Source: an uncultured bacterium
GTDB lineage: Bacteria; Krumholzibacteriota; Krumholzibacteriia; LZORAL124-64-63
Direction: 5' to 3'
Assembly: GCA_963732385.1 (NCBI GenBank)
Contig: CAVSZB010000008.1
Span: 192,001-256,000, forward strand
Length of the DNA stretch: 64,000 bases
Below the pieces are notes generated by a model. The model ran no database searches, was not told the DNA's origin, and worked only from the letters and a program-made list of their open reading frames with translations. This document shows, piece by piece, positions 7,582 through 20,747 of this stretch (the first letter of the stretch is position 1; every line of letters starts with the position of its first letter). The translations under genes were made by a program, and so were the position numbers.

Positions 7582-8709
7582 ATGAAGCTGCGGACCCCGA
7601 TGCTGCTGACCGGGCTGGTTCTGGTCGCTGCGCTTGGCCTGGCCGGTTGCGGCGCGGACCAGGCCACGACCACGGCCACCGACGGCACGACTGACGATTA
7701 TGCCGCCCTGGATCTGGACGCCGAATTCGGCGGTCTCACCGCGACCGACGAGGCCGCGGCGTTCGGCGACATCGCCCTGGAGCAGGCGGTCATGGCGGAG
7801 ATGGACGAAGTGGCGGCCGACCCCCTTGCTGCTGATCCGCAGGTGGCACAGCTCGAGGCGCTGGCCGTCGCCACCGGGGATGCCGCGATGGCCCCGCGGC
7901 CGCGCGTCACGTTCCTGCGCGTCGTGTGGGGTGTGCTGGACGCCCCCCCCGACACGCTTGGCACGCTGGATGAAGGGCCGGACCGGGTCGACTGGTCCGG
8001 TCGGATCCAGGTGGACCGCGGTCTGGTGATCGTGCGGCGCGTGATCAGTTTCGAGCGGCCCCGCGATTATCTGCTGCCCCGTCTTGACCGGCGCACCGTG
8101 GGTTGGGTATCGCACACCGGTCCGCGCAGCGACGGCCTCCTGATCGAGATCCTCGAGCCGCCGGTCCTGCCCGATTCCACGGGCGCCCTGCCGCCGCCTA
8201 ACCGGCTGCGGTTCCGGACGGCTCCCTACGGCGCGGAATTCATCGTCGAGGAGCTCGTTGGTCTCGACGCCACCTTCCCGGTCCTGCCGGAGGGAAATGC
8301 CATCCACTTCACCGGCTTCCGCCCCGACATCTGTCCGCGGGGCTTCCTGGCCGGTTTCTGGCAGTCCCACGGCGACTCGGCGGGGTCGTTCCGCGGCCGC
8401 TGGCTCGGCCTGCAGGGGCGCAGCGACGGTTTCCTGCGTGGCGGCTACGGCTATGACAGCGAGGGGCGCCGCGTTATGGCGGGCAAGTGGATCAGCACGG
8501 CCGGGCAGTTCCGCGGCCTGTTGCGCGGAACCTGGGAGCCGCTGCCCGTGCCAGGGCATGGGCGGTTTTTCGGCCAATGGGTGAACGCGGCCGGCACGGT
8601 GGATGGCGAATTTGGCGGCGAGTTCCTGGCCGCGCCGGAACGCCCGGGAGGTTTCTTCGCGGGTCGCTGGGGGACGCTCTGTCCCGGCGGGGATGTCCTG
8701 CCGGAGTAA
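7582..8709 (+). CDS. Hypothetical lipoprotein with C-terminal GxFxGxW beta-repeat region
   Basis: GGAGG RBS, lipobox LAGC, acidic N-terminal region, about 8 G-x-F/L-x-G-x-W/F strands. Confidence 0.8.
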   Translation: MKLRTPMLLTGLVLVAALGLAGCGADQATTTATDGTTDDYAALDLDAEFGGLTATDEAAAFGDIALEQAVMAEMDEVAADPLAADPQVAQLEALAVATGDAAMAPRPRVTFLRVVWGVLDAPPDTLGTLDEGPDRVDWSGRIQVDRGLVIVRRVISFERPRDYLLPRLDRRTVGWVSHTGPRSDGLLIEILEPPVLPDSTGALPPPNRLRFRTAPYGAEFIVEELVGLDATFPVLPEGNAIHFTGFRPDICPRGFLAGFWQSHGDSAGSFRGRWLGLQGRSDGFLRGGYGYDSEGRRVMAGKWISTAGQFRGLLRGTWEPLPVPGHGRFFGQWVNAAGTVDGEFGGEFLAAPERPGGFFAGRWGTLCPGGDVLPE

Positions 8710-8778: not shown

Positions 8779-9375
8779 TCAGTCCCGCTCGATCTCCAGC
8801 AGCCCCGCGTGCACCAGCGGATGCACGACGAGCCGGTGGCGCGCCTCGATCACGAGGTCGACGCGTCCGCCGATCGAACCCTCCCCTCTGATCTCGTAGT
8901 CGTGGGCCGGCGAGTAGGCCTCGATTCCCTTCGCGTCGGGATCGATCGTTTCGACCGGCTCACCCCCCTCGAGTACCAAACCGGCCGGCAGTCCCTTCAG
9001 CAGCGCCTGGATCTCCTCGCCGTAGCGTCGCGCGAAAGCCTGATAGCGGAAGTGGATGCGGGCGGCGCGCACACGGCCCTCATCCGCCAGGCGCAGGCCT
9101 GCCTCGCTTTCCAGACGCGTGCGTACCGCGACGAGCCGGTCGCGCGTGGTCTGGTCCACGATGGCGCGGCATTCGTGGGGGGACAGGCCGACCATGCCGC
9201 GCAGGCGATCGCCGAGCGAGCGTCCGGCGGGCGCCTGCTCCGGGGGGAACTCCAGGTAGCCGGCGTGCCCGGCGCCCATGAGCAGTCCGCACAGGAAGCC
9301 CCGCCCCGCCTCGGGCATTCCCTCGATCACCACTTCGAAAAAGACCGGCGCGGACGTTGGGTTTTTGGCGGTCAT
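8779..9375 (-). CDS. Hypothetical protein (198 aa)
   Basis: Protein-like composition; AGGAG RBS; 12-bp gap after the antiporter gene. Confidence 0.7.
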   Translation of the reverse strand: MTAKNPTSAPVFFEVVIEGMPEAGRGFLCGLLMGAGHAGYLEFPPEQAPAGRSLGDRLRGMVGLSPHECRAIVDQTTRDRLVAVRTRLESEAGLRLADEGRVRAARIHFRYQAFARRYGEEIQALLKGLPAGLVLEGGEPVETIDPDAKGIEAYSPAHDYEIRGEGSIGGRVDLVIEARHRLVVHPLVHAGLLEIERD

Positions 9376-9387
9376 CAGCGCGACTCC

Positions 9388-10923
9388 TTAACGGAAGAAG
9401 AGCAGGGTGATGACGATGAACGTCGGGATCAGGAACGGAATCGAATAGCGGAACATGTAGCCGAAGAAACTCGGCATCGGCACACCCGCCTCTTCCGCGA
9501 TCGACTTCACCATGAAGTTGGGCGCATTGCCGATGTAGGTGTTGGCGCCCATGAACACCGCCCCGGCCGAGATGGCGGTGAGGTCGCGGATAAAATCGGG
9601 GTTGGCAGCGACGCCCGCCACGTGTCCGAGCATGCCCGGCACCGCGGATTCCGGCACGCCGAGGCTGCCGAGGGCCGTGTTGAAGAAGGTCAGATAGGTG
9701 GGGGCGTTGTCGAGGAAGCTCGACAGTCCGCCCGAGACCCAGAAGTAGTGCACCGGTTCGCGGACGGCGCGGATCAGCCCCGCCATGGCGCCGTGCACGC
9801 CGGCCTGCAGTATCTCGAGGGCCGGAATGATCGTAATGAAGATGCCGGCGAACAAAATCGCCACCTCGCGGATCGGCCCCCAGGAGAATTCGTTGCGCGC
9901 GCGCAAGGTCTTCGCGGTTGTCAGGAGCGACAACCAGCCCATGAGCAGCAGGAAGACGTCGCGCACGAGATTCTGGCGTTCGATCACGACGTGCCCGTAG
10001 ACATGCTGCGGCCCCAGCTTGACGGAACCGGAAAACAGCACACCGGCCATGACGCCGAGCAGGAAAAGCAGATTGTGCAGTCCCTCGATGCGCACCCGGC
10101 CCGCGCCCAAAGCGATCTCGGGTGGGCGCGCGGTCTCCCGCCGGAAGGCGTGCTGGTCGATCAAATAGAAGAGCGCGAGCAGGATGACCGTCGCCGTGGC
10201 GGCCTCCCGCAGCAACGCCGTGGTGACCCAGAAGAACGGCACCCCGTGCAGGAAGCCGAGGAACAACGGCGGATCGCCCAGCGGCGTCAGGGAACCGCCG
10301 ATGTTGGCGACCAGGAAGATGAAGAACGCCACCACGTGAACCTGGCTGCTCCGCCACGCATTCGCGCGCAGCAGCGGGCGGATCATGACCATGGCGGCGC
10401 CGGTGGTGCCGATCCAGGAGGCGAGGAGCGTCCCGATCAACAGCAGCAGCGTGTTGAGCGCCGGCGAGCCGCGCAAAGCTCCGCCCACGTAGATTCCGCC
10501 GGCGATCGTGAACAGCGCCCACAGCAGGATGATGAACGGGATGTAGTCGATGACCGCGATATGGATGATCTTCTGCAGCCCCTCGTTGCCGTACACCGCC
10601 AGGAACGGGACCGCCATGAGCAGCGCCCAGGCGGCCGACACCTTCGGGAAGTGATGGTGCCAGAAGCGGGGCGCCAACAGCGGGAAGAGGGCGATCGAGA
10701 GGAGAATCCCGGCGAACGGGAGGGTGCTCCAGAGCGGCAGACGCTCGCCGAACCCGGCCTGATGGACGGCGGCGCCGGTCTCCGCCCCGACGTTCCCGGC
10801 GGTTCCGGAAGCGGGAACCGACGCCATGGCGGTGATCCCGGACATCAGCAGCAGGGCCAGGAAAAGGAGCGCGGCGGTCCGCGGGGGCACCGACCGTCGC
10901 GGCGGCGGAAATACGGATCTCAT
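9388..10923 (-). CDS. Sodium:proton antiporter-like IT-superfamily transporter (CitMHS_2-like)
   Basis: Many TM helices; ASWIGTTGAAM, ANIGGSLTPLGDPPLFLGF, SSFLDNAPTY, GANTYIGNAPNFMV. Confidence 0.85.
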   Translation of the reverse strand: MRSVFPPPRRSVPPRTAALLFLALLLMSGITAMASVPASGTAGNVGAETGAAVHQAGFGERLPLWSTLPFAGILLSIALFPLLAPRFWHHHFPKVSAAWALLMAVPFLAVYGNEGLQKIIHIAVIDYIPFIILLWALFTIAGGIYVGGALRGSPALNTLLLLIGTLLASWIGTTGAAMVMIRPLLRANAWRSSQVHVVAFFIFLVANIGGSLTPLGDPPLFLGFLHGVPFFWVTTALLREAATATVILLALFYLIDQHAFRRETARPPEIALGAGRVRIEGLHNLLFLLGVMAGVLFSGSVKLGPQHVYGHVVIERQNLVRDVFLLLMGWLSLLTTAKTLRARNEFSWGPIREVAILFAGIFITIIPALEILQAGVHGAMAGLIRAVREPVHYFWVSGGLSSFLDNAPTYLTFFNTALGSLGVPESAVPGMLGHVAGVAANPDFIRDLTAISAGAVFMGANTYIGNAPNFMVKSIAEEAGVPMPSFFGYMFRYSIPFLIPTFIVITLLFFR

Positions 10924-10982: not shown

Positions 10983-11023
10983 AGGTTCAGGCAGCGGTCG
11001 AATCGGAAGTTGAAAACGGCCTG

Positions 11024-11052
11024 AACGTAGGGTAGCTTCCCGGCGCTGTCAA
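11024..11052 (-). promoter_or_regulatory. sigma70 promoter of the antiporter
   Basis: Minus strand TTGACA-N17-TACGTT. Confidence 0.6.
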
Positions 11053-11101
11053 TGATCGCCCGGCCTGGCGCGGGTGGGTTCGCGCTCCGATCGGTCCCGC
11101 C

Positions 11102-12265
11102 GTGAGAATCGCTTTTCTCAGTTCCCAGCACGGCTATTACGGCGGCGAGGTGCATTTGCTGCAACTCGCGCGGGGGCTGGCGCTGCGTGGCCACGAGGTG
11201 GCCTGCTGCGTGCCGCCCGGCAGCGGCCTGGCGGTCCGGTTGGCCGACACCGGTCTCGACGTGACCACCGTGCGGCTCGTGGATTGGTTCGAGCCGGTCG
11301 GGGCCGCGCGCTCGGTCGCCTGGCTGCGCCGTCTGCGGCCGGACATCCTGCACACGCACTGTCCCCGCGACCACTACCTGGCGGCGATGGCCACGCGCGG
11401 CCTCCCGACCCGCAACGTCGGCACGCGCCACGAATTGCTGCCGATCGGGGCGGCGCGGTTCAAGCGGCCGTTCTTCCGCCGGTTCGCCGCGATGATCGCC
11501 GTTTCGGAGGCGGTACGCACGGTCTTCGTGGCCTCGCGCGTCATGGATCCGGAGCGCGTGGTGACGGTTCGCAACGGCGTCGACACCGACCGCTTGATGC
11601 CGGTCCGCGGTAGTCTGCGGAGGGCGGCCGGTCTCGACGAGGATGACGTGCCGGTCGTTGGCTACGTCGGGCGCCTCTCGCCCGGCAAGGGGCTGGATAC
11701 GCTGATCGAGGCGATGGCGTTGTTGCGCCGCAACGGGGGACCTCGGGCGCGGCTCTTCATCGTGGGCGACGATCCGAGCCGCGACGGTGCCTACGGCGGC
11801 GCGCTGCGCCGCCGCGCCGCACAACGCGGCCTGGGCGAATCCGCGCACTTCTTCGGATGGGTGGAGGATGCCGCGGCCGCCGCCGCCGATTTTGACCTGC
11901 TCGTCGTGCCGTCGCGCGCGGAACCGTGCGGCCTCGTCACGCTCGAAGGGATGGTCCACGGCCATGCGATCATCGCCACCGCCGCCGGCGGCACAACGGA
12001 ACTGATTCGCGACGGCAGGGAGGGGCTGCTCGTACCGCCGGGCGATCCGGCGGCGCTGGCGGCACGGCTGGCGCGCCTGCTCGGCGATCCGGAGCTGCGC
12101 GCGCGCCTCGGCGCGTCGGCGCGTCGGCGCGTGACGGGGCAGTTTCCGCTGTCGAGGATGCTCGACGGTGTGGAGGGTGTGTACCGGCGCGTGGGCGAAG
12201 CCGGAGCGGCCGCGCGGGGCGTTGATCACGACGGCGGACAGGGCGAAGGGGCTTTGGAGTTTTGA
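11102..12265 (+). CDS. Glycosyltransferase family 4
   Basis: GGEVH, LHTH, AVSEAV, NGVD, GRLSPGKG, PSRAEPCGLVTLEGM. Confidence 0.9.
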   Translation: MRIAFLSSQHGYYGGEVHLLQLARGLALRGHEVACCVPPGSGLAVRLADTGLDVTTVRLVDWFEPVGAARSVAWLRRLRPDILHTHCPRDHYLAAMATRGLPTRNVGTRHELLPIGAARFKRPFFRRFAAMIAVSEAVRTVFVASRVMDPERVVTVRNGVDTDRLMPVRGSLRRAAGLDEDDVPVVGYVGRLSPGKGLDTLIEAMALLRRNGGPRARLFIVGDDPSRDGAYGGALRRRAAQRGLGESAHFFGWVEDAAAAAADFDLLVVPSRAEPCGLVTLEGMVHGHAIIATAAGGTTELIRDGREGLLVPPGDPAALAARLARLLGDPELRARLGASARRRVTGQFPLSRMLDGVEGVYRRVGEAGAAARGVDHDGGQGEGALEF

Positions 12266-12287
12266 TATCCAACGCTCGTGCTGGGCT

Positions 12288-12316
12288 TTGACTCTCCGAC
12301 CGGTGCGTGCTACAAT
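12288..12316 (+). promoter_or_regulatory. Near-consensus sigma70 promoter of the Omp28 operon
   Basis: TTGACT-N17-TACAAT with extended TG. Confidence 0.7.
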
Positions 12317-12379
12317 CCAACTAATCGGCCATTTCAATATTCGATCATCCACTTTCCAAGCCCTCGCCAGGAGCCGGGA

Positions 12380-13492
12380 ATGTCTCGTTGGAGACCATTC
12401 CTATGGCTGGGGTTGTTTCTGGCGCTCACCACGCAGTCGCCGGGGTGCGGCCGAAAGGCTCCCGTCTTCGCGCCCCCGCCGACGCAGGAGTGGGGCTTCC
12501 TGGGCGTGACCTCCACGCCGTCGGGCGCGGCGATCGCGCTCGACGGGCTGGACACCGGACGGGTAACCCCGGACACCCTCGAGACAATCGTCATTGGGCC
12601 GCACGTGGTGCGGGTGCGGCTGGACGGCTACGTTGCCGAGCCGGAATCGCTGGTGGTCGAGGTGACGGCCCCGCTCATGGCGAGCGCCGCGTTCACGCTG
12701 TCCGAGCAGCAGCAGGCTCCGCTCAAGGTGGCCCTGCTGGAGGGGTTCTCGAACGTCGATTGCCTCGGCTGCCCGGAACTCGCCGCCACACTCGCGGCGG
12801 TCATGGCCGAGCCGGGACACGGCAGCGATCGCCTGCTGCTGATCAAGTACGCGACGAACTGGCCCAATTACCTCGACCCGCACTATCAGACCAACCCGCA
12901 GGACAATACCGCCCGCCTGACGTTCTACCAGAGCGACATCATGGGCATCCCCACGCTGTTCGCCGACGGCGCGCTGGTGGGCGTCTCGGGCCAGGCGACC
13001 GCGGCGGCGGAACTGTCGACGCTCGTGGACGAGCTGCTGGCGGCCGATCCCGGTTTCGCCATCGCCGTGACCGCCACCATCGCCGGGTCGGGTGTCGCGG
13101 CGGAGGCGGTGCTCACTGCCGTGCGTGCCGTCTCGCACCCGGGGGCCGTGCTGCATCTCGCGTTGTTGGAGAATCCCGTCGTCTACGCCGCTGCGCCCGG
13201 CAGCCAGGGGGAGACCGAGTTCCACTGGATCATGCGCGACTTCGTCACCCTTGCCGAATCGCCTCTGCCTCTGGCTGCGGATGAGCCGCGGGAGATGTCG
13301 GGCAACCTGGCCGTGCCGGCCGTCTGTCTCTCCGCGCACCTCGCCGTGATAGCGTTCGTCCAGGATTCCGCCACACGCGAGATTCTTCAGGCGGGCCTGG
13401 CGCCTGTCGTTTCGGCTGTTCCCTTATCGTCGTCGTCTCCGCAATCAGTCCTCGCCACATCCCGGATTTTCAACGGAAGAAGTGGGCCATGA
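12380..13492 (+). CDS. Lipoprotein: PEGA domain + Omp28-like thioredoxin/Ig domain
   Basis: AGGAG RBS, lipobox SPGC, VTSTPSGAAIALDG..TP (PEGA), LLEGFSNVDCLGCP, GIPT, FHWIMR, VIAFVQD. Confidence 0.8.
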   Translation: MSRWRPFLWLGLFLALTTQSPGCGRKAPVFAPPPTQEWGFLGVTSTPSGAAIALDGLDTGRVTPDTLETIVIGPHVVRVRLDGYVAEPESLVVEVTAPLMASAAFTLSEQQQAPLKVALLEGFSNVDCLGCPELAATLAAVMAEPGHGSDRLLLIKYATNWPNYLDPHYQTNPQDNTARLTFYQSDIMGIPTLFADGALVGVSGQATAAAELSTLVDELLAADPGFAIAVTATIAGSGVAAEAVLTAVRAVSHPGAVLHLALLENPVVYAAAPGSQGETEFHWIMRDFVTLAESPLPLAADEPREMSGNLAVPAVCLSAHLAVIAFVQDSATREILQAGLAPVVSAVPLSSSSPQSVLATSRIFNGRSGP

Positions 13493-15555
13493 TCAAATCG
13501 AGAACATCGATCATCCTGGGCCTCGTGGCCTGCTGCCTGACGGCCTCGACCGCGCTGGCCGTGCCACGGGTGATGCTCGTCGAGGGATTCACCAACGTCG
13601 GCTGCCCCTACTGCCCCGACGCCAACGCGGCCACGCACGAATTCCTCGCGGACTACGGTCCGTCCATGGCGATCGGCGTGTCGTACCACGTCTCGTGGCC
13701 GGACAGCGGCGATCCATTCTACACGCTGGCAAATGCGGATTCTTCCATCTACTTCCGCAGGGTGTACTACGGGGTCAACTCGGTCCCCTCGCTCTTCTCG
13801 GACGGCACTTCGACGGTGACCGGCAGCGTGGCGGCCCTGGAAGGGGCGGCGACCACGCGCCTGACCACCGAATCACCGATCACGGTCGCCGTGGAGCAGG
13901 TGATCGAGGGCGGGATGGTCACCGTCACCGCGACGGTCACCGCGGTCGATGCGGTCCCGCTCGGCGATCTGGCGCTGCGCATCGCCCTGACCGAAACCGA
14001 GATCCACTACGCCGTGGCGCCCGGCTCGAACGGCCAGACCGATTTCTACGACACGATGCGCGACATGCTGCCTGACGCGCGCGGCACGAAGTTCACGATC
14101 GGCCTGGGCGAGACCCGGGTCTTCGTCCAGAGCACGCCGGTCAACGTGGCCTGGAACCTGGCCAACATCCGCGCCGTGGTCTGGGTGCAGGACGACCTCA
14201 CGAGAGAGGTGCTGCAGGCGGGCAGCACGGCGCCCAGGCCGGACTACACCTTCTTCTACGGCCCCCGCAAGAGCATCGACGTGGTCAATATCGGCACGCT
14301 GTGCAGCTACGAGTCCATCCTTGCGAACTACGGCAATCTGTCCGATGCCTATGACGTCACCATCACGCCCGACCTGCCGGCCGGCTGGAGCGGCTCGGTC
14401 TGCATCGGCACGACCTGCTATCCGCCCTGGATCACCAGCTTCGTCACCAGCGCTGCTCCGGAAACCCAGAAAATCATCCAGGTGGACATCCAGCCGTTGC
14501 TGACGGCCGGCAGCGGCACGATGACGCTTACCGCCACCAGTCGCGGCGATCCCACGAAGACCTGGACCCGCGTGTTCAAGATGATTTCCGGCGGCGTGCC
14601 GATCCTGTGCATGGACAGCGACGGCGGCTACGATTACGAAACCTACTATAACGCGGCGCTCGATGCGGCCGGTCATCCCTACGCCACCTGGGATCGGCTG
14701 CTCAACGGCGCTCCCAGTGCCGCCCAGCTCGATCATTTCGCCATCGTGATCTGGAACGGGGGACTCGCGTATCCGCCCGTCACGACCACCGACAGGACCG
14801 CGCTCGCCACGTACCTTGACAACGGCGGCCGCCTGTTCATCAGCGGCCAGGACATCGGGTGGTCGCTGTGCGATCCCGCCAGCTCGGACTACAGCGCCGA
14901 GTCGATGGCGTGGTACAACGCCTACCTCGGCGCGGATTATCTCAGCGACGGCATCAACGACCTGTCCCTGAGCGGCGTGGCGGGAGATCCGATCACCGAC
15001 GGGCTGGTGTTCAACCTGAACGGCGGCACCAGCGCCGACAATCAGGACTGGCCGAGCGAGATCCAGCCGCGGACGGGCGCGGTCGGCTGCGTGGTCTACA
15101 GTCCCAACCGTGAGGCCGCAGTCCGCTACGCGCACGGACCGTTCCGCGTGGTGTACCTGGCGTACGGGTTCGAGGGAATGGACACGGAGTCGAGCCGGTT
15201 CACCCTCATGTCCCGCAGCCTCGACTGGCTCGGCATCCAGTTGGTCGGCGTGCCGGGCGAGACGCCGCCGGTGCTGGCCCTGGAGCCGACGGTCGCGCCC
15301 AATCCGTTCAACCCCGCCACTGAGATCGCCTTCACCGTGGGCAGCCCAGTGCCGGTACCGGTGAAGGTGGCGATCTACGACGTGCGCGGACGGCTCGTGC
15401 GCGAGATCTATGACGGCCCGGTCGCGCCGGGAAAATGCACGCTGGCCTGGGACGGCTGTACCGCAACGGGCGCCCAGGCGGCCAGCGGGGTCTACCTGGC
15501 TCGCGTGCGGGTGGCGGACGAGGAGCGCGTCCTCAAACTGGCCCTGACCAAGTGA
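13489..15555 (+). CDS. Secreted Omp28-like thioredoxin-domain protein with FlgD-Ig/T9SS-like C-terminal domain
   Basis: Signal peptide, LVEGFTNVGCPYCP, YH, YGVNSVPS, VVWVQD, C-terminal PNPFNP..YDVRGR..WDG..SGVY. Confidence 0.82.
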   Translation: MIKSRTSIILGLVACCLTASTALAVPRVMLVEGFTNVGCPYCPDANAATHEFLADYGPSMAIGVSYHVSWPDSGDPFYTLANADSSIYFRRVYYGVNSVPSLFSDGTSTVTGSVAALEGAATTRLTTESPITVAVEQVIEGGMVTVTATVTAVDAVPLGDLALRIALTETEIHYAVAPGSNGQTDFYDTMRDMLPDARGTKFTIGLGETRVFVQSTPVNVAWNLANIRAVVWVQDDLTREVLQAGSTAPRPDYTFFYGPRKSIDVVNIGTLCSYESILANYGNLSDAYDVTITPDLPAGWSGSVCIGTTCYPPWITSFVTSAAPETQKIIQVDIQPLLTAGSGTMTLTATSRGDPTKTWTRVFKMISGGVPILCMDSDGGYDYETYYNAALDAAGHPYATWDRLLNGAPSAAQLDHFAIVIWNGGLAYPPVTTTDRTALATYLDNGGRLFISGQDIGWSLCDPASSDYSAESMAWYNAYLGADYLSDGINDLSLSGVAGDPITDGLVFNLNGGTSADNQDWPSEIQPRTGAVGCVVYSPNREAAVRYAHGPFRVVYLAYGFEGMDTESSRFTLMSRSLDWLGIQLVGVPGETPPVLALEPTVAPNPFNPATEIAFTVGSPVPVPVKVAIYDVRGRLVREIYDGPVAPGKCTLAWDGCTATGAQAASGVYLARVRVADEERVLKLALTK

Positions 15556-16163
15556 CGCGTCACAGGGAGGTGCCGATCTTGTTCTGGCAAGTGCCGGGGC
15601 CGCGCTGCGCGCGGCGGGTCGCAGCGGCGACCGCGGTCCTGGTCCTGGCGACACTCATGTCGTGGGGGCCGACGGCTCCGTCGGTCGTCGTCGCGGGCCC
15701 GTCGGCCGGGCCAGCCGTCCCCGACTGGACGCTGCGCACGGCGGACGGCCGGGAGATCAGTCTGCACGGGGCCCTCGCGCAGGGCCCCGTGCTCCTCTCC
15801 TTCTGGGCCCTCTGGTGCAATCCCTGCCTGCACGAGTTGCCCCATCTCGACGCGCTCGCGCGCGACACCGCGGGTCGTCTGACGGTCCTGGCCGTCAACC
15901 AGGACGGTCCCCGGAGCGTGGCGCGTGTCCGCCCCTATCTGCAGTCGAAGAAGTTTGGCCTCACGGTGCCCCTCGACACTTCGGGCGATGTGGCGCGCAG
16001 GATGCAGGTGGGCGGCATCCTGCCGTTCGTGGTCCTGTACGATGCCGATGGCAGGGAATTGTACCGCCACATCGGCTACCGCGATGGCGACGAGGCGACG
16101 CTCCGCGCCAGGGTGATGGCGCTGCTCGGCGTCACGGCCGTGGATTCCGCGGGGGTGAAATGA
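15552..16163 (+). CDS. TlpA-family thiol:disulfide oxidoreductase (alternative start TTG 15579)
   Basis: LLSFWALWCNPCLHELP, VNQD, cis-Pro ILP; N-terminal hydrophobic anchor. Confidence 0.88.
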   Translation: MTRHREVPILFWQVPGPRCARRVAAATAVLVLATLMSWGPTAPSVVVAGPSAGPAVPDWTLRTADGREISLHGALAQGPVLLSFWALWCNPCLHELPHLDALARDTAGRLTVLAVNQDGPRSVARVRPYLQSKKFGLTVPLDTSGDVARRMQVGGILPFVVLYDADGRELYRHIGYRDGDEATLRARVMALLGVTAVDSAGVK

Positions 16164-17629
16164 GGCACGCGGGGCTGCAGCTGGGCGGCGTCATGGTGGC
16201 TGTCATGATCGCGGGCGCGACCGTGCGCGCGGAGACGATCGGCGACGGCCAGGTCTCGGCCGTCGATGCGTTCGAGTACTCCTACAGCACGGAGACCGGC
16301 CGGGAGATCGTCGAGAACTGGCTCGACGCAAGCTGGCTTTTGGGCGGTTTGCGCGCGGGCATCCTGCTCAACCATCAGGCGCCGTCCGAAGAGGGTTTCC
16401 GGGCCAACAGCGTGCGGCACCGCTTCGTGGAGTTCTCCACCCAGGGACTCGACGTGCGGGCCGGTCATTTCTACGGGATGTTCGGTCGCGGCCTGCTGTT
16501 CGCCGCCTACGAGGACCGACGGATCCGCGTGGACACCGCCCTCGACGGCCTGCTGGCGTCGGGTCGGCGCGGCCGCCTGCGCGGCACCGCCTTCACGGGC
16601 GCGCCGAGCGACCTGTCCGTGGACGTGCGCGGTCTCGACAGCGAGGTCGATCTCGGCCATGGCTGGGGGCTGGGCCTCTCGGGCCTGACCTGGCGCGCCG
16701 ACGACCGGGTCGCGGCCGACGGGGACGTGCACCGCGAATGGGTGGCGGCGCCACGTCTGACCACGACGCTCCCGTGGGGAGGTCTCTATCTCGAATACGG
16801 GCGCAAGAAGGGGTGGGACAACGATTTCGTGCCCGACGACGCCTACCAGAACGGACATGCCTTCTACGGGGGGCTCGATCTGGCGGCGGGACCGCTGGGC
16901 CTTTCCTTCGAGGCGAAGGACTACCGTCGGTTCACCGTCCTGCGCAACGCGGACGGCCGCACGCCGCTCAACAACCCGCCGTCGCTCACGCGCGAGCACC
17001 TCTACACGCTGCTCAACCGTGCCCCCCACGCGGTGGACGCCGATGACGAGCGCGGCCAGCAGGCGGAACTGTCGTGGACCGGCCCGGCCGGCTGGGGCAG
17101 TCTGCTGAACCTCAGCCGCACCGAGCGTCATGACGGCAGGCTCCTGTTCGAGGAGGCGTACGCACAGATCGACCAGGATCGGCTCGGAGCCTTCCGGCTG
17201 CGCGGCGGCTTCGGTTATCGCGAAAGCGAGGGGCTGCGGCAGACCGTGGTGACCGAGGTCACGTGGTTCCTGGACGAGCGCGCCAGCCTCACCTTCGAGG
17301 GCGAGCACCAGCACGTCCGCATGGGCGGGGGCGCCGGCTTTGATCTGGGCGCCTTCGACGAGGATTTCCTGAAACTGGAACTGGGCGTGGCGCCCGCCTG
17401 GTCCGTCTGCGCGATGCTGGAGATGAACAACAAGTTCGTCGAGCAGCGCGCTTTCGGCGAAAAGGCCGGGCCGTTCCCGGCGGCGCAAATCGCGTACACC
17501 ACCGAACAGGGCGCCCGTCTTGCCCTGTGGGCCGGCAAACGCCAGGCGGGCTATCTCTGCGCCGGTGGCGTCTGTAAGTATGAGCCGGCGTTCGTTGGCG
17601 TGGAACTGAGCGGGACGGTACGCTACTAA
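16160..17629 (+). CDS. DUF6029-like outer-membrane beta-barrel protein
   Basis: Signal peptide, AGHFYGMFGRGLL, NNPPSLTREH, DERG, C-terminal CAGGVC..P and terminal aromatic residue. Confidence 0.75.
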   Translation: MRHAGLQLGGVMVAVMIAGATVRAETIGDGQVSAVDAFEYSYSTETGREIVENWLDASWLLGGLRAGILLNHQAPSEEGFRANSVRHRFVEFSTQGLDVRAGHFYGMFGRGLLFAAYEDRRIRVDTALDGLLASGRRGRLRGTAFTGAPSDLSVDVRGLDSEVDLGHGWGLGLSGLTWRADDRVAADGDVHREWVAAPRLTTTLPWGGLYLEYGRKKGWDNDFVPDDAYQNGHAFYGGLDLAAGPLGLSFEAKDYRRFTVLRNADGRTPLNNPPSLTREHLYTLLNRAPHAVDADDERGQQAELSWTGPAGWGSLLNLSRTERHDGRLLFEEAYAQIDQDRLGAFRLRGGFGYRESEGLRQTVVTEVTWFLDERASLTFEGEHQHVRMGGGAGFDLGAFDEDFLKLELGVAPAWSVCAMLEMNNKFVEQRAFGEKAGPFPAAQIAYTTEQGARLALWAGKRQAGYLCAGGVCKYEPAFVGVELSGTVRY

Positions 17630-17647
17630 GACGGCCGGCGGCTGTAC

Positions 17648-18319
17648 CTACGGCGCACCGCTCGCCTTCAAGAGACCGCGCAGGAACGGCTCGATACCAT
17701 TCATCAGCAGTTGCACCGCGATCACGGTCACCATCAGGCCCATCAGTTTTTCCATGATGCGCAGGCCGGTGCGCCCGAGGCGGCGCATCACCACGTCGCC
17801 GCCGACCAGGAGCAGGCCGGTGAGGGCCAGGATGACCAGCACGCTGGCCAGCGTGACGATGCGTCCGGGCAGGCCGGGCGCCTCGGCCATCAGGACCATG
17901 ACCGTGGTGATCGAACCGGGCCCGGCCAGCAACGGGATGGCCAGCGGCGTGACGGAAGGATCTTCGGCCTCGTCCTCGTCGGGGTGGTCGTAGGAATGGG
18001 CGCTCTCGATGCCGGTGTGCCAGCGTCGCTGACGCGACTGCAGCATGTCGAGGCCGATCCCGAAGAAGATCACGCCGCCGGCGATGCGGAACGCGGAAAG
18101 GGTGATCCCGAACAGGCGCAGCAGAGTGTTGCCGAGGCCGGCGAACAGCAGCAGGATCGCCAGCGCCACCACCAGCGCGCGGGCCAGCACGCGCCGCCGT
18201 TTCCGGCGGGGCATGCGCGCCGTGAGCCCGCTGAAAAAGGGGATGCAGCCGAGCGGGTCGATCACCGCGAACAGTGACGACAGCGCAAAGACCGCGAAGG
18301 CCCACAGTTCCATCGCCAT
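17648..18319 (-). CDS. MarC-family membrane protein
   Basis: [30 protein letters not shown]. Confidence 0.9.
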
Positions 18320-18497
18320 GAATCACCTCTGCCGGCGGGTAGCGCCCCGCGTGCCGTCCATGGTGGGCGCCGGCCGGCACCCAGGCAAGCCGGTTTTTCT
18401 TCACTTGGGCCGCAACAAGGTGCATCTTCGAAGGTGCGGGGGTCGCCGGCGCGCTCCCGTGGCATTTGCAGCGGCCGAGGCCGCAGGGAGGTTCGGG

Positions 18498-20747
18498 ATG
18501 GCTGTCCGCGATCAGGATGCGCTCGACTATCATAGCCAGGGACGACCGGGCAAGACCGAGGTCGTGCCGACCAAGCCGTGCTTGACGGCCCGGGATCTTT
18601 CCCTCGCCTATACCCCCGGCGTGGCGATTCCCTGCCTTGAGATCGAAAAGAACCCCGCCGACGCCTATCGCTACACGAACAAGGGCAATCTGGTCGCGGT
18701 GATCTCGAACGGGACCGCCGTGCTCGGTCTGGGTGACATCGGAGCCATGGCCGGCAAACCGGTCATGGAGGGCAAGGGGGTCCTCTTCAAGCGCTTCGCG
18801 CACGTGGATGTGTTCGACATCGAAATCGACACGCATGACCCGCAGGAGGTCATCAAGTTCTGCCAGCTGATCGAGCCCACGCTCGGCGGCATCAACCTGG
18901 AGGACATCAAGGCTCCGGAGTGCTTCCTCATCGAGGAGACACTCAAGAAGACCATGAATATCCCGGTCTTCCACGATGACCAGCACGGCACGGCGATCAT
19001 TTCCGGCGCGGCTCTGATCAATGCCTGCAAGATCACCGGGCGCGACATCAAGTCGGTCAAGGTGGTCGTGAGCGGGGCCGGTGCGGCGGCGATCGCCTGC
19101 GCGAAGTTCTACGAGCGGCTCGGCGTCCCGCGCGCGAACTTCCTGCTCGTCGATACCAAGGGGGTCGTATTCAAGGGGCGCCAGGAGGGGATGAACCCCT
19201 ACAAGGAGTACTTCGCTCAGGACACGAAACGGCGCACGCTCGCCGAGGCGCTCAAGGACGCCGATGTCTTTCTCGGTCTTTCGGCCAAGGGGGTCATGTC
19301 GCAGGACATGGTGCGTTCGATGGCCAAGGATCCCATCATTTTCGCCATGGCCAATCCCGATCCCGAAATTACCTACGACGATGCCAAGGCTGCGCGCGCC
19401 GATGTCATCATGGCGACCGGACGCTCGGATTTTCCGAACCAGGTCAATAACGTGCTCGGTTTTCCCTTCATCTTCCGCGGGGCGCTCGACGTGCGCGCCA
19501 CGGCGATCAACGAAGAGATGAAAATGGCGGCTGCCCACGCCCTGGCCGAACTGGCGCGGCAGCCGGTGCCGGATCATGTCTGCGCGGCCTACGGCGGCCA
19601 GCGCTTCGAATTCGGGCGGGAGTACATCATCCCGAAGCCGTTCGATCCGCGCGTGCTGGTGTGGGAAACGCTCGCGGTGGCGAAGGCCGCCTGCGAGACC
19701 GGCGTGGCGCAGCAGCCGATCACCGACTGGGACGCCTACCGCGACCGGCTCGAGGGAATGATCAGCAAGAGCGTGCAGGTCATGCGGACCATCCGCATGA
19801 AGGCGCAGCGCGAGCGCCGGCGGGTGGTTTTCACCGAGGGCGACAACCTGCGGGTGGTCGAAGCGTGCCGTGGCATCCTGGACGAGAAACTGGCGCAGCC
19901 GATCCTGCTCGGCAAGGAGGCGCCGATCCGGGCGATGGCCGAGCAGCTCGGTATCGATCCCGCGGCGCTGACGATCGTCGATCCGGAAAATTCCCCGCAC
20001 AACGAGGTGTACGCGAAGGCGCTGTTCGAGTGGGCGGCGCGCAAGGGATACACGCTTCAGAAGGCGGCCGCCATGGTCACGCGGCCGCATCACCACGGCA
20101 TCATGATGCTGCGCTTCGGGCATGCCGACGGCATGGTGGCCGGAGGCGACCGTCCGTACGTGGACACCATCCGGCGTCTGCTGCCCCTGGTGGAGACGAA
20201 GCCGGGAGTGTCGCGGGCGGCCGGGATGCACGTCATGCTGGTCGAGGGCAAGGTGTTCATCTTCGCCGACACGACCATAAACGTGGAACCGGACGCGAAG
20301 CAGCTCGTCGAGATCTCGCTGCTGGCGGCCGAGGTTGCGCGCTACTTCAATCTGGAGCCGCGCGTGGCCCTGCTGTCGTTCTCGAACTTCGGCGACAACA
20401 AACACCCCAAGACCCGCCAGGTGCGCGAAGCGGTGGCGATCCTGCACCGCGATCATCCGGAGCTGATCGCCGATGGCGAGATGCACGGTGACGTGGCGGT
20501 GCTGCCGGAGTTCAGCGCCCTGAGCTTCCCGCACAGCCGGGTGCAGGGGCAGGCGAACGTGCTTATCTTTCCCGATCTGATGAGCGGAAATATCGCCTAC
20601 AAGCTGGTCGGCAACATCGGACGGCGCGAAGTCATCGGTCCGCTGCTGATCGGCCTGAAATACCCCATCAACGTGATTTCCTACAACTCCGACTTGCGCG
20701 AGATCGTCAACATGGCGGCGCTTTCGGCTTTCCAGGCCGGAAACTAA
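18498..20747 (+). CDS. maeB: NADP-dependent malic enzyme with PTA-like domain
   Basis: [58 protein letters not shown]. Confidence 0.95.

Follow-up and report, generated by a model that had tools for sequence, protein, structure and literature searches.

In E. coli, DsbD/CcdA and nDsbD carry cysteine pairs in series across a membrane and work with a partner of the TlpA/ResA type (PMC3137068, PMC3173608), and the four-gene locus described here is proposed to have a similar arrangement. As described in those papers, nDsbD is not a thioredoxin but an Ig domain with a Cx5C loop pair that exchanges with thioredoxin folds; in gene 2 of the locus there is an Ig domain with a Cx4C hairpin. DsbD, however, spans the inner membrane by a helical domain, whereas the membrane component here is an outer-membrane beta-barrel with one Cx4C pair. 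The helical domain of DsbD/CcdA (PF02683) was found in none of the four genes, and the CcdA of this genome lies on another contig.

Similar proteins are known from Porphyromonas gingivalis: PorA (PG2172, 6KJK), Omp28 (PG2173, 2R2C), the thioredoxin-domain protein PG2175 and HBP35 (PG0616, 5Y1A). The gene numbers of PorA, Omp28 and PG2175 are reported as consecutive (PMC13744359), and PorA has a Cys92/Cys96 pair (PMC12152298). Unlike the P. gingivalis set, the locus joins HBP35-like and PorA-like domains in one protein and has a probable lipoprotein with a PEGA domain. In the accessible text of the papers on the P. gingivalis genes, these are not tied to a redox relay. The "DsbD systems" of ApbE, DUF3570, a thioredoxin-like protein and DUF4266 (PMC8238504) similarly combine an extracytosolic thioredoxin-like protein, a small Cys-pair protein and a DUF protein, with electrons proposed to come from DsbD. 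The DUF3570 cluster, as presented there, uses covalent flavin at [S/T]GA[S/T] together with ApbE, but this motif is absent from gene 4 and there is no apbE in or next to the operon, so a flavinylated DUF3570 type was rejected. A further likeness is to the Omp28-related selenoprotein NF045500 (GOS_C; PMC13188914), which shares the Omp28-type thioredoxin domain and has UxxC counterparts in the barrel-side paralogues of relatives.

The locus occupies positions 12288..17629 of the plus strand in the window, a 64,000-nt stretch of contig CAVSZB010000008.1 from an uncultured Krumholzibacteriota bacterium. Its features are as follows.

12288..12316, + strand: sigma70-type promoter-like site TTGACT-17-TACAAT, score 10/12, with a similar site in relatives
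12380..13492, + strand: gene 1, probable lipoprotein (Cys23) with a PEGA domain and an Omp28/HBP35-type thioredoxin domain, from profile searches and alignment
12761..12772, + strand: CLGC (C128/C131) of gene 1; an alignment of 64 Omp28-type domains has both cysteines in every row
13489..15555, + strand: gene 2, signal peptide, HBP35-fold thioredoxin domain, Ig domain with a C-x4-C hairpin, domain of about 220 aa, FlgD-Ig/T9SS-like C-terminal domain
13603..13614, + strand: CPYC (C39/C42) of gene 2, from the sequence
14401..14427, + strand: CIGTTC-YPP (C305/C310), beta-hairpin Cys pair of the gene 2 Ig domain, from alignment and model
15289..15552, + strand: C-terminal sorting-type domain of gene 2 with PNPFNP, from FlgD_ig and TIGR04183 scores
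15552..16163, + strand: gene 3, TlpA/ResA-like thioredoxin of a barrel-linked subfamily, start at 15552 or 15579
15816..15827, + strand: CNPC (C89/C92) of gene 3; neither Cys varies among the 53 barrel-linked TlpAs aligned
16160..17629, + strand: gene 4, DUF6029 outer-membrane beta-barrel, present once in the genome; a fused homologue is modelled with 24 strands
17558..17575, + strand: CAGGVC (C467/C472) of gene 4, beta-hairpin in the loop ahead of the final strand, on the extracellular side as judged from strand topology

The four open reading frames encode, in order, 370, 688, 203 and 489 aa. A preliminary description of this DNA had listed four genes, their overlaps, a promoter, the PNPFNP motif and the Cys pairs CLGC, CPYC, WCNPC and CAGGVC, and all of these were found. 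The single promoter that it placed ahead of gene 1 was the sole site of its kind in 6.1 kb (shuffled sequence gives a mean of 0.3), and 15 of the 16 relatives examined had a promoter-like site scoring at least 9/12 in the 260 nt before gene 1, compared with 16 of 320 background windows. The genes were said to be chained by overlaps, and the tetramers ATGA (13489, genes 1/2), GTGA (15552, genes 2/3) and ATGA (16160, genes 3/4) are indeed present. The start of gene 3 is nevertheless uncertain, and GTGA may not be the real one, because an in-frame TTG at 15579 follows an AGGGAGG at 15564-15570. No Rfam match was obtained in positions 11000-19000 of the window and no plasmid match was found. The genes also stay together across the loci of relatives, as the preliminary description expected, and chance clustering was ruled out by this conserved gene order; the sampled genomes were kin, mostly from one phylum and outside the Bacteroidota.

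The identity of gene 4 as a DUF6029 protein is clear (PF19494, 153.3 bits against a gathering cut-off of 27), while its profile gave no sequence match in the PDB. A fused homologue was modelled with pLDDT 92.6 and pTM 0.90: TlpA runs straight into strand 1 of a barrel of 24 strands as counted by DSSP, the Cys pair is on a hairpin and the model ends with strand 24. The barrel had been described as ending in CAGGVC; in fact one further strand, ending in Tyr, comes after it. The hairpin is predicted from the model to be in the last extracellular loop. Conservation of these cysteines was almost complete, as all 120 close homologues and 119 of the 120 distant ones had the pair (239/240), and this part of the preliminary description held. 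There is no second, periplasm-side Cys pair in the barrel, so that any relay needs a periplasmic domain touching the extracellular loop directly, a point against it.

Gene 3 exceeded the cut-offs for AhpC-TSA/Redoxin (PF00578/PF08534) with 54.3 and 44.4 bits (AhpC-TSA cut-off 26), in agreement with its proposed thioredoxin identity. It fell below the cut-offs of the TlpA equivalog NF047696 (39.9 vs 230 bits) and the ResA equivalog NF002854 (48.1 vs 170 bits), and its TlpA profile matched PDB 2m72 best. Along with both CxxC cysteines, the later Pro of the cis-Pro loop was invariant in the 53 aligned barrel-linked TlpAs. TlpA lies directly 5' of the barrel in 33/34, 20/20 and 16/17 loci, the misses being at contig ends, and in 77 of the 120 homologues listed TlpA and the DUF6029 barrel form a single polypeptide; the fused or split state changed at least three times on the tree. 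The preliminary description had regarded TlpA as an anchored thioredoxin, but because it is fused to an outer-membrane barrel in many relatives it is probably not anchored in the inner membrane, and this anchoring was rejected. Judging from the linkage and fusion observed and the contact predicted, TlpA and the barrel are likely to act as a 1:1 unit. Fold searches with the fusion model gave no position for TlpA in relation to the lumen. Covariation was calculated on 149 TlpA-barrel pairs plus that of the window (about 77 effective), with an uninformative signal dominated by relatedness.

Both probably exported proteins encoded upstream contain Omp28-type thioredoxin domains, about 31% identical to each other. 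For gene 2, Omp28 (PF11551) scored 45 bits, over the cut-off of 34.9, whereas gene 1 with 18.3 bits remained below it, so the earlier assignment was borne out by the profile for one protein only; gene 1 was also under the cut-off for the Omp28 lipoprotein NF033782 (15.2 vs 150 bits). The profile of its thioredoxin domain nevertheless found PDB 2r2c at E 0.004, and profile search placed the PEGA domain at its N-terminus. Gene 1 contains the CLGC proposed for it, but because the lipobox SPGC (Cys23) is atypical, its lipidation is given here only as probable.

The N-terminal domain of gene 2 superimposed on HBP35 with Z 24.2 and rmsd 2.5 over 216 aligned residues; HBP35 was also the top Foldseek match, and gene 2 has the two-domain fold of HBP35, thioredoxin plus Ig, with an N-terminal CxxC. 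The top match of its Ig domain was PorA (Z 11.5, rmsd 2.8, 114 aligned, 10% identity), with unrelated Ig domains scoring within 1 of it, and a sequence profile of the Ig domain did not find PorA. C305/C310 in this domain is a fifth conserved Cys pair in the operon, which the preliminary description overlooked. C-x4-C was present in 55/55 complete Ig copies upstream of the barrel, some of them near-identical to the barrel motif (CYGGVC, CVGGVC), and absent in 13/13 Ig copies of downstream Sec paralogues. DsbD_N was touched by only 1 of 41 members of this Ig fold with the Cx4C hairpin, at E 0.067, and nDsbD was not among the 50 matches listed for the gene 2 model, a two-domain query, in the fold search. 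At the C-terminus, FlgD_ig scored above its cut-off (36.3 vs 27 bits) and TIGR04183 below (19 vs 23 bits).

Exported thioredoxins that adjoin the module in relatives are often UxxC forms with selenocysteine. The Omp28-CTD paralogues just 3' of the barrel in relatives have TGA at the first Cys and a conserved hairpin downstream. Both Omp28-type domains of the window are CxxC, with scores of 29.5 and 49.6 against 200 bits for NF045500, and UxxC was seen only in the paralogues of relatives. In the paralogue clade a UxxC redoxin is found just 5' of TlpA in 14/26 loci; on sequence grounds, the partner in this clade differs and the chemistry appears to be the same. The genome carries CcdA+TlpA, SprA-, PorV- and C25-family genes (profile search gave SprA_N, PorV and C25 matches), 87 FlgD-Ig matches, SelA and tRNA-Sec.

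A shared thiol-redox function of the module is supported by the natural TlpA-barrel fusions and the UxxC forms of the adjoining exported thioredoxins, and conservation of the cysteines and gene linkage agree with it. The preliminary description went further and proposed a relay; that the operon specifies a DsbD-like relay of thiol-disulfide exchange across the outer membrane, with thioredoxin folds alternating with Cys hairpins, is in our judgement an even proposition. In such a relay, a CcdA-type inner-membrane protein, encoded elsewhere in the genome, would feed electrons to the periplasm, and TlpA would bind to or within its own 24-stranded barrel as a 1:1 unit. The plug-less barrel may be wide enough for TlpA, so that its CxxC could be brought to the last-loop hairpin, and this hairpin would then reduce the Omp28/HBP35-type domains of genes 1 and 2. 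The C-x4-C hairpin of the gene 2 Ig domain could serve as an nDsbD-like onward carrier, recharging other secreted CxxC/UxxC enzymes. A broader proposal, which we put forward more tentatively, is that of an outer-membrane counterpart of DsbD, in which a thioredoxin-plugged barrel hairpin would pass periplasmic electrons to the surface and a secreted Ig hairpin would spread them to type IX-exported thioredoxins and selenoenzymes; this may be the missing electron source for HBP35-like surface thioredoxins across the FCB group. HBP35 itself is a surface protein with Cys-dependent insulin-reductase activity, and it has also been found to complement an E. coli dsbA mutant (cited in PMC2907840), which would allow electrons to flow either way and counts against a relay. 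So does the finding that PorA can do without its four cysteines in the signalling role known for it (PMC12152298).

Alternatively, the barrel may be a channel for uptake or exchange in which the loop disulfide is structural; TlpA and the Omp28 proteins would then fold or repair the disulfides of the module itself or reduce a substrate (metal, haem, selenium or a thiol compound) before passage. Disulfides in extracellular loops of barrels, including cross-strand hairpin pairs, are often structural, which weighs for this explanation and against a relay. HBP35 binds hemin and is required when hemin is limiting (PMC2907840), again in favour of such a channel, as is the outcome of two exact-pattern metagenome scans of low sensitivity for TGA at either barrel Cys, with 0 matches and 1 chance match in an unrelated gene; this outcome also counts against a relay. 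However, a folding helper would not be expected 1:1 with every barrel copy, nor repeatedly fused to it, and in 110/120 of the distant homologues the mature barrel has no other Cys. The model has no TonB-type plug and the operon no transporter genes, and we consider such a channel unlikely.

The barrel could also be a pore of usher size dedicated to exporting PorA-like/Omp28 proteins or to holding them at the surface, with TlpA as gating plug and cargo disulfide proofreader and the hairpin acting in gating or capture, without net electrons. FimD (Z 15.3, rmsd 4.0, 356 aligned) and PapC (Z 14.8), ushers whose outer-membrane barrels have 24 strands like the model, were indeed the best structural matches of the barrel, and the PorA-like Ig domain is at most 5 kb from the barrel in 54/59 genomes. 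PorA is reported to arrive at the cell surface of P. gingivalis independently of the T9SS translocon, by a route that is not known (PMC7712824), which also favours export. Identity to FimD/PapC was only 8-10%, though, and the match may reflect strand number alone. The plug and the N- and C-terminal chaperone-binding domains of a fimbrial usher are missing from the model, and the neighbours are thioredoxin-fold genes, with no pilin or chaperone genes. Barrels of the paralogue clade keep TlpA and the Cys pair with no adjoining Omp28 domain in 11 loci, and 17 further loci have neither an Ig domain nor an adjacent Omp28 domain. Gene 2 is missing altogether in 2/28 loci; where present it has its own CTD, and SprA/PorV-like genes are found in the genome. 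We regard an export pore as rather unlikely.

DUF6029 has been proposed as a polysaccharide-export porin from HHpred similarity to plug-less Wzi homologues (PMC9603273), and a GT4 glycosyltransferase gene lies directly upstream (the operon being flanked by GT4 and MarC genes), but an OPX-coupled, 18-stranded porin is very improbable here and was rejected, as the barrel models at 24 strands, its constant neighbours are thioredoxin-fold genes while the upstream genes vary among the loci read, and the TlpA fusion would be left unexplained.

Surface thioredoxins such as HBP35 are active in vitro, but the accessible text of PMC2907840 assigns them no definite role in the cell and mentions no reductant beyond the outer membrane. 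Should the relay be true, Gram-negative FCB bacteria would own a thiol wire to the exterior, separate from conduits based on haem or flavin, and DUF6029, Omp28 and the cysteines of the PorA N-domain would gain a function; if the barrel is instead an export pore, the T9SS-independent surfacing of PorA would be explained. The open-access literature searched gave no description of the module as a system. New here are the TlpA-barrel fusions, the conservation of the barrel hairpin, the fifth Cys pair and HBP35 fold of gene 2 and the UxxC neighbours. The natural fusion makes the relay directly testable in one protein, and a separate TlpA-barrel fusion of 687 aa was found in the distant CTSGTC paralogue clade.

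The preliminary description had placed one promoter and, behind it, four overlapping reading frames in 12288..17629 (+), and the frames, their overlaps and their Cys motifs were all present in the window sequence. The promoter-like site was the only one found in 6.1 kb; 15 of 16 relatives had, 5' of gene 1, a site of at least 9/12, compared with 16 of 320 background windows. By Pfam, the DUF6029 domain of gene 4 (the barrel), AhpC-TSA/Redoxin in gene 3 (TlpA) and Omp28 in gene 2 were recovered, while the Omp28 call for gene 1, a probable lipoprotein, stayed below threshold beside a PEGA domain. Barrel and Omp28 domains had a single location in the window's genome (96% complete), within the module. 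Two other reading frames of the window had no Pfam match:

7582-8709, a 375-aa probable lipoprotein with aromatic-glycine motifs repeated in its C-terminal part
8779-9375 (-), a 198-aa ORF immediately behind the gene for a CitMHS_2-family transporter (9388-10923)

The expected co-occurrence of the genes was borne out in relatives. TlpA lay directly 5' of the barrel in 33 of the 34 fetched barrel loci and the PEGA-Omp28 lipoprotein (gene 1) was present in 28, all misses of either being contig ends; gene 2 was absent from two of these 28. Among 151 genomes of the phylum, which are kin and give counts that are not independent, DUF6029 was matched in 74, Omp28 in 52 and the Ig domain type of gene 2 in 60. 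The barrel was also matched in 51 of the 52 Omp28 genomes and 59 of the 60 Ig-domain genomes (the exception is 75% complete), and the Ig domain lay at most 5 kb from the barrel in 54 of the 59, the other five being assemblies of 200-670 contigs. It is clear that the module is real and conserved. It is also unstudied: no description of it as a system was found in the main texts of the open-access papers searched. Frameshifts in module genes were seen in the loci L003, L017/L054, L057 and L115; those in L003, several in number, could be due to sequencing error.

A signal peptide, a WCxxC thioredoxin and the barrel were joined in one protein in 77 of 120 homologues among the matches listed (216 found). 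The fused or split state changed at least three times on a FastTree tree, read for topology only, that sampled 39 of these fusions alongside 41 split barrels and 6 outgroups. The paralogue clade, distant barrels with the motif CTSGTC or similar, had its own TlpA directly 5' of the barrel in both sets of loci read (11 of 11; 16 of 17). It also contained one in-frame TlpA-barrel fusion of 687 aa. TlpA had been described as anchored; because it is fused to the barrel in many homologues, it is probably not tethered to the inner membrane. An AlphaFold2 model of one fusion (pLDDT 92.6) had a pTM of 0.90, which suggests that the TlpA and barrel domains are confidently placed relative to each other. 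It showed 24 barrel strands, joined by short turns on one side and by long loops on the opposite side, and no plug domain of the barrel's own; the best structural matches of the barrel were the 24-stranded ushers FimD and PapC (identity 8-10%). Atlas clusters of 526-695 aa proteins from Krumholzibacteriota, Verrucomicrobiota and Acidobacteriota (rows 2, 3, 8), in which an AhpC-TSA domain is accompanied by a long unannotated stretch, resemble the fusion by these features and are possibly further TlpA-barrel fusions.

The Cys pair of the barrel (CAGGVC) proved to be conserved. Among the matches listed, C-x-GG-[VI]-C was present in 120 of 120 close homologues and C-x4-C in 119 of 120 distant ones (208 found; named members include KSB1, Calditrichota, Balneolaceae and Gemmatimonadota), and in 110 of these distant homologues the mature barrel had no other Cys. 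In the fusion model the pair lies on a hairpin of two strands that connects strands 23 and 24, predicted by topology to be extracellular. No second Cys pair was present on the periplasm side of the barrel, and therefore a relay, that is, thiol-disulfide exchange across the outer membrane, would need TlpA to reach the hairpin loop through the lumen. Loop disulfides are often structural, which counts against such a relay, and a channel with a structural disulfide is a possible alternative. In two low-sensitivity exact-pattern metagenome scans, the hairpin was not seen with selenocysteine.

Gene 2 carries a fifth Cys pair of the module at residues 305-313 (CIGTTC-YPP). The profile of its Ig domain gave 72 rows over the loci, where some genomes are represented more than once; 55 rows were complete copies upstream, 13 belonged to paralogues downstream and 4 were fragments. 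C-x4-C was present in all 55 complete upstream copies, often in tandem domains, and absent from all 13 downstream ones; several motifs (CYGGVC, CVGGVC, CEGGVC) are nearly identical to the barrel's own. One homologue (L075:8086-9882, -) has four tandem C-x4-C Ig domains followed by a CTD. In many relatives gene 2 begins with the Ig domain and lacks the Omp28 domain, so in the window's version the conserved hairpin domain is linked to an Omp28-type domain. A model of residues 25-372 (pLDDT 95.4, pTM 0.91) placed the pair on a beta-hairpin. The N-domain matched HBP35 (Z 24.2, rmsd 2.5, 216 aligned), and the Ig domain matched the N-domain of PorA best (Z 11.5, rmsd 2.8, 114 aligned), on a par with unrelated Ig domains. 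The recurrent TlpA-barrel fusion and this twin hairpin on a putative PorA-like domain are what the window contributes. In P. gingivalis, PorA (PG2172), Omp28 (PG2173) and a thioredoxin-domain protein (PG2175) are reported as near-adjacent by gene number (PMC13744359). A rival explanation is that the barrel is an export pore for the PorA-like protein: it is usher-sized, and PorA is reported to arrive at the surface independently of the T9SS translocon (PMC7712824), but the paralogue barrels have no PorA-like neighbour.

HBP35 is reported to be surface-located and to reduce insulin in a Cys-dependent manner, although, against a relay, it can also stand in for DsbA (PMC2907840). Directly 3' of the barrel, relatives have one to three Omp28-CTD paralogues with TGA at the first motif Cys and a conserved downstream hairpin, and UxxC (CxxC with TGA, for putative Sec, in place of the first Cys) Omp28-related proteins are reported as a listed selenoprotein family (PMC13188914). 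By a crude motif search, 14 of 26 loci of the paralogue clade have a UxxC redoxin just 5' of TlpA. The exported partner thus varies in type and keeps thiol/selenol chemistry. A thiol-redox role common to the module's parts is well supported; that it transfers electrons across the membrane is what we infer, and this is testable. Secreted Omp28-Ig-CTD gene arrays (one to three genes) with in-frame TGA in UxxC, and, in this phylum too, a second cassette type (a UxxC redoxin that often bears a CTD-like tail, then TlpA and a DUF6029 barrel with CTSGTC) were seen in these loci:

L069:4960-10014 (-), TGA-bearing array
L070:4636-7539 (-), TGA-bearing array
L018, L023, L024, L033, the same arrays 3' of the barrel
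L081, L082, L084, L085, L101, L103-L105, L108-L111, L113, L115, second cassette, UxxC redoxin 5' of TlpA
L107:5527-6536, second cassette, further instance

In the arrays a conserved GTGTG-loop hairpin follows the TGA by ~27-45 nt, and gene callers would truncate these genes. Within the phylum, numerous further Omp28 matches sit in open frames of ~620-640 codons and may be of the same TGA/UxxC kind. Both cassette types co-occur in some genomes.

In the DsbD cascade, thioredoxin folds are reported to exchange with an Ig domain having a Cx5C loop (PMC3137068, PMC3173608), and the module matches its alternation of thioredoxin folds and non-thioredoxin Cys hairpins. Judged from the conservation, linkage and fusion of its parts, together with predicted folds and hairpin position, the chances are about even that the module is a DsbD-like relay across the outer membrane. 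Electrons would then pass from TlpA to the barrel hairpin, the Omp28-type thioredoxin, the Ig hairpin and further exported thioredoxins, with contacts, surface location, order and direction as we infer them; if this reading is right, the module would work like the DsbD cascade. The report that PorA cysteines are dispensable for PorY activation (PMC12152298) speaks against the relay. The polysaccharide porin suggested for DUF6029 (PMC9603273) fits poorly. By the features tested, the module is neither a DsbD nor an usher, nor is it a DUF3570 system of the reported type (PMC8238504).

The window's genome also encodes CcdA adjoining another TlpA, SelA and tRNA-Sec, together with SprA-, PorV- and C25-family proteins and 87 FlgD-Ig matches. 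Two of its sites (G000) are:

contig C4:166094, a 2254-codon SprA-like frame
contig C7:223775-226731, a C25 peptidase and a PorV-like protein encoded side by side

SprA-like, C25/PorV-like and many FlgD-Ig C-termini in a genome outside the Bacteroidota suggest, by sequence likeness, a type IX-like system whose sorting domain is divergent.
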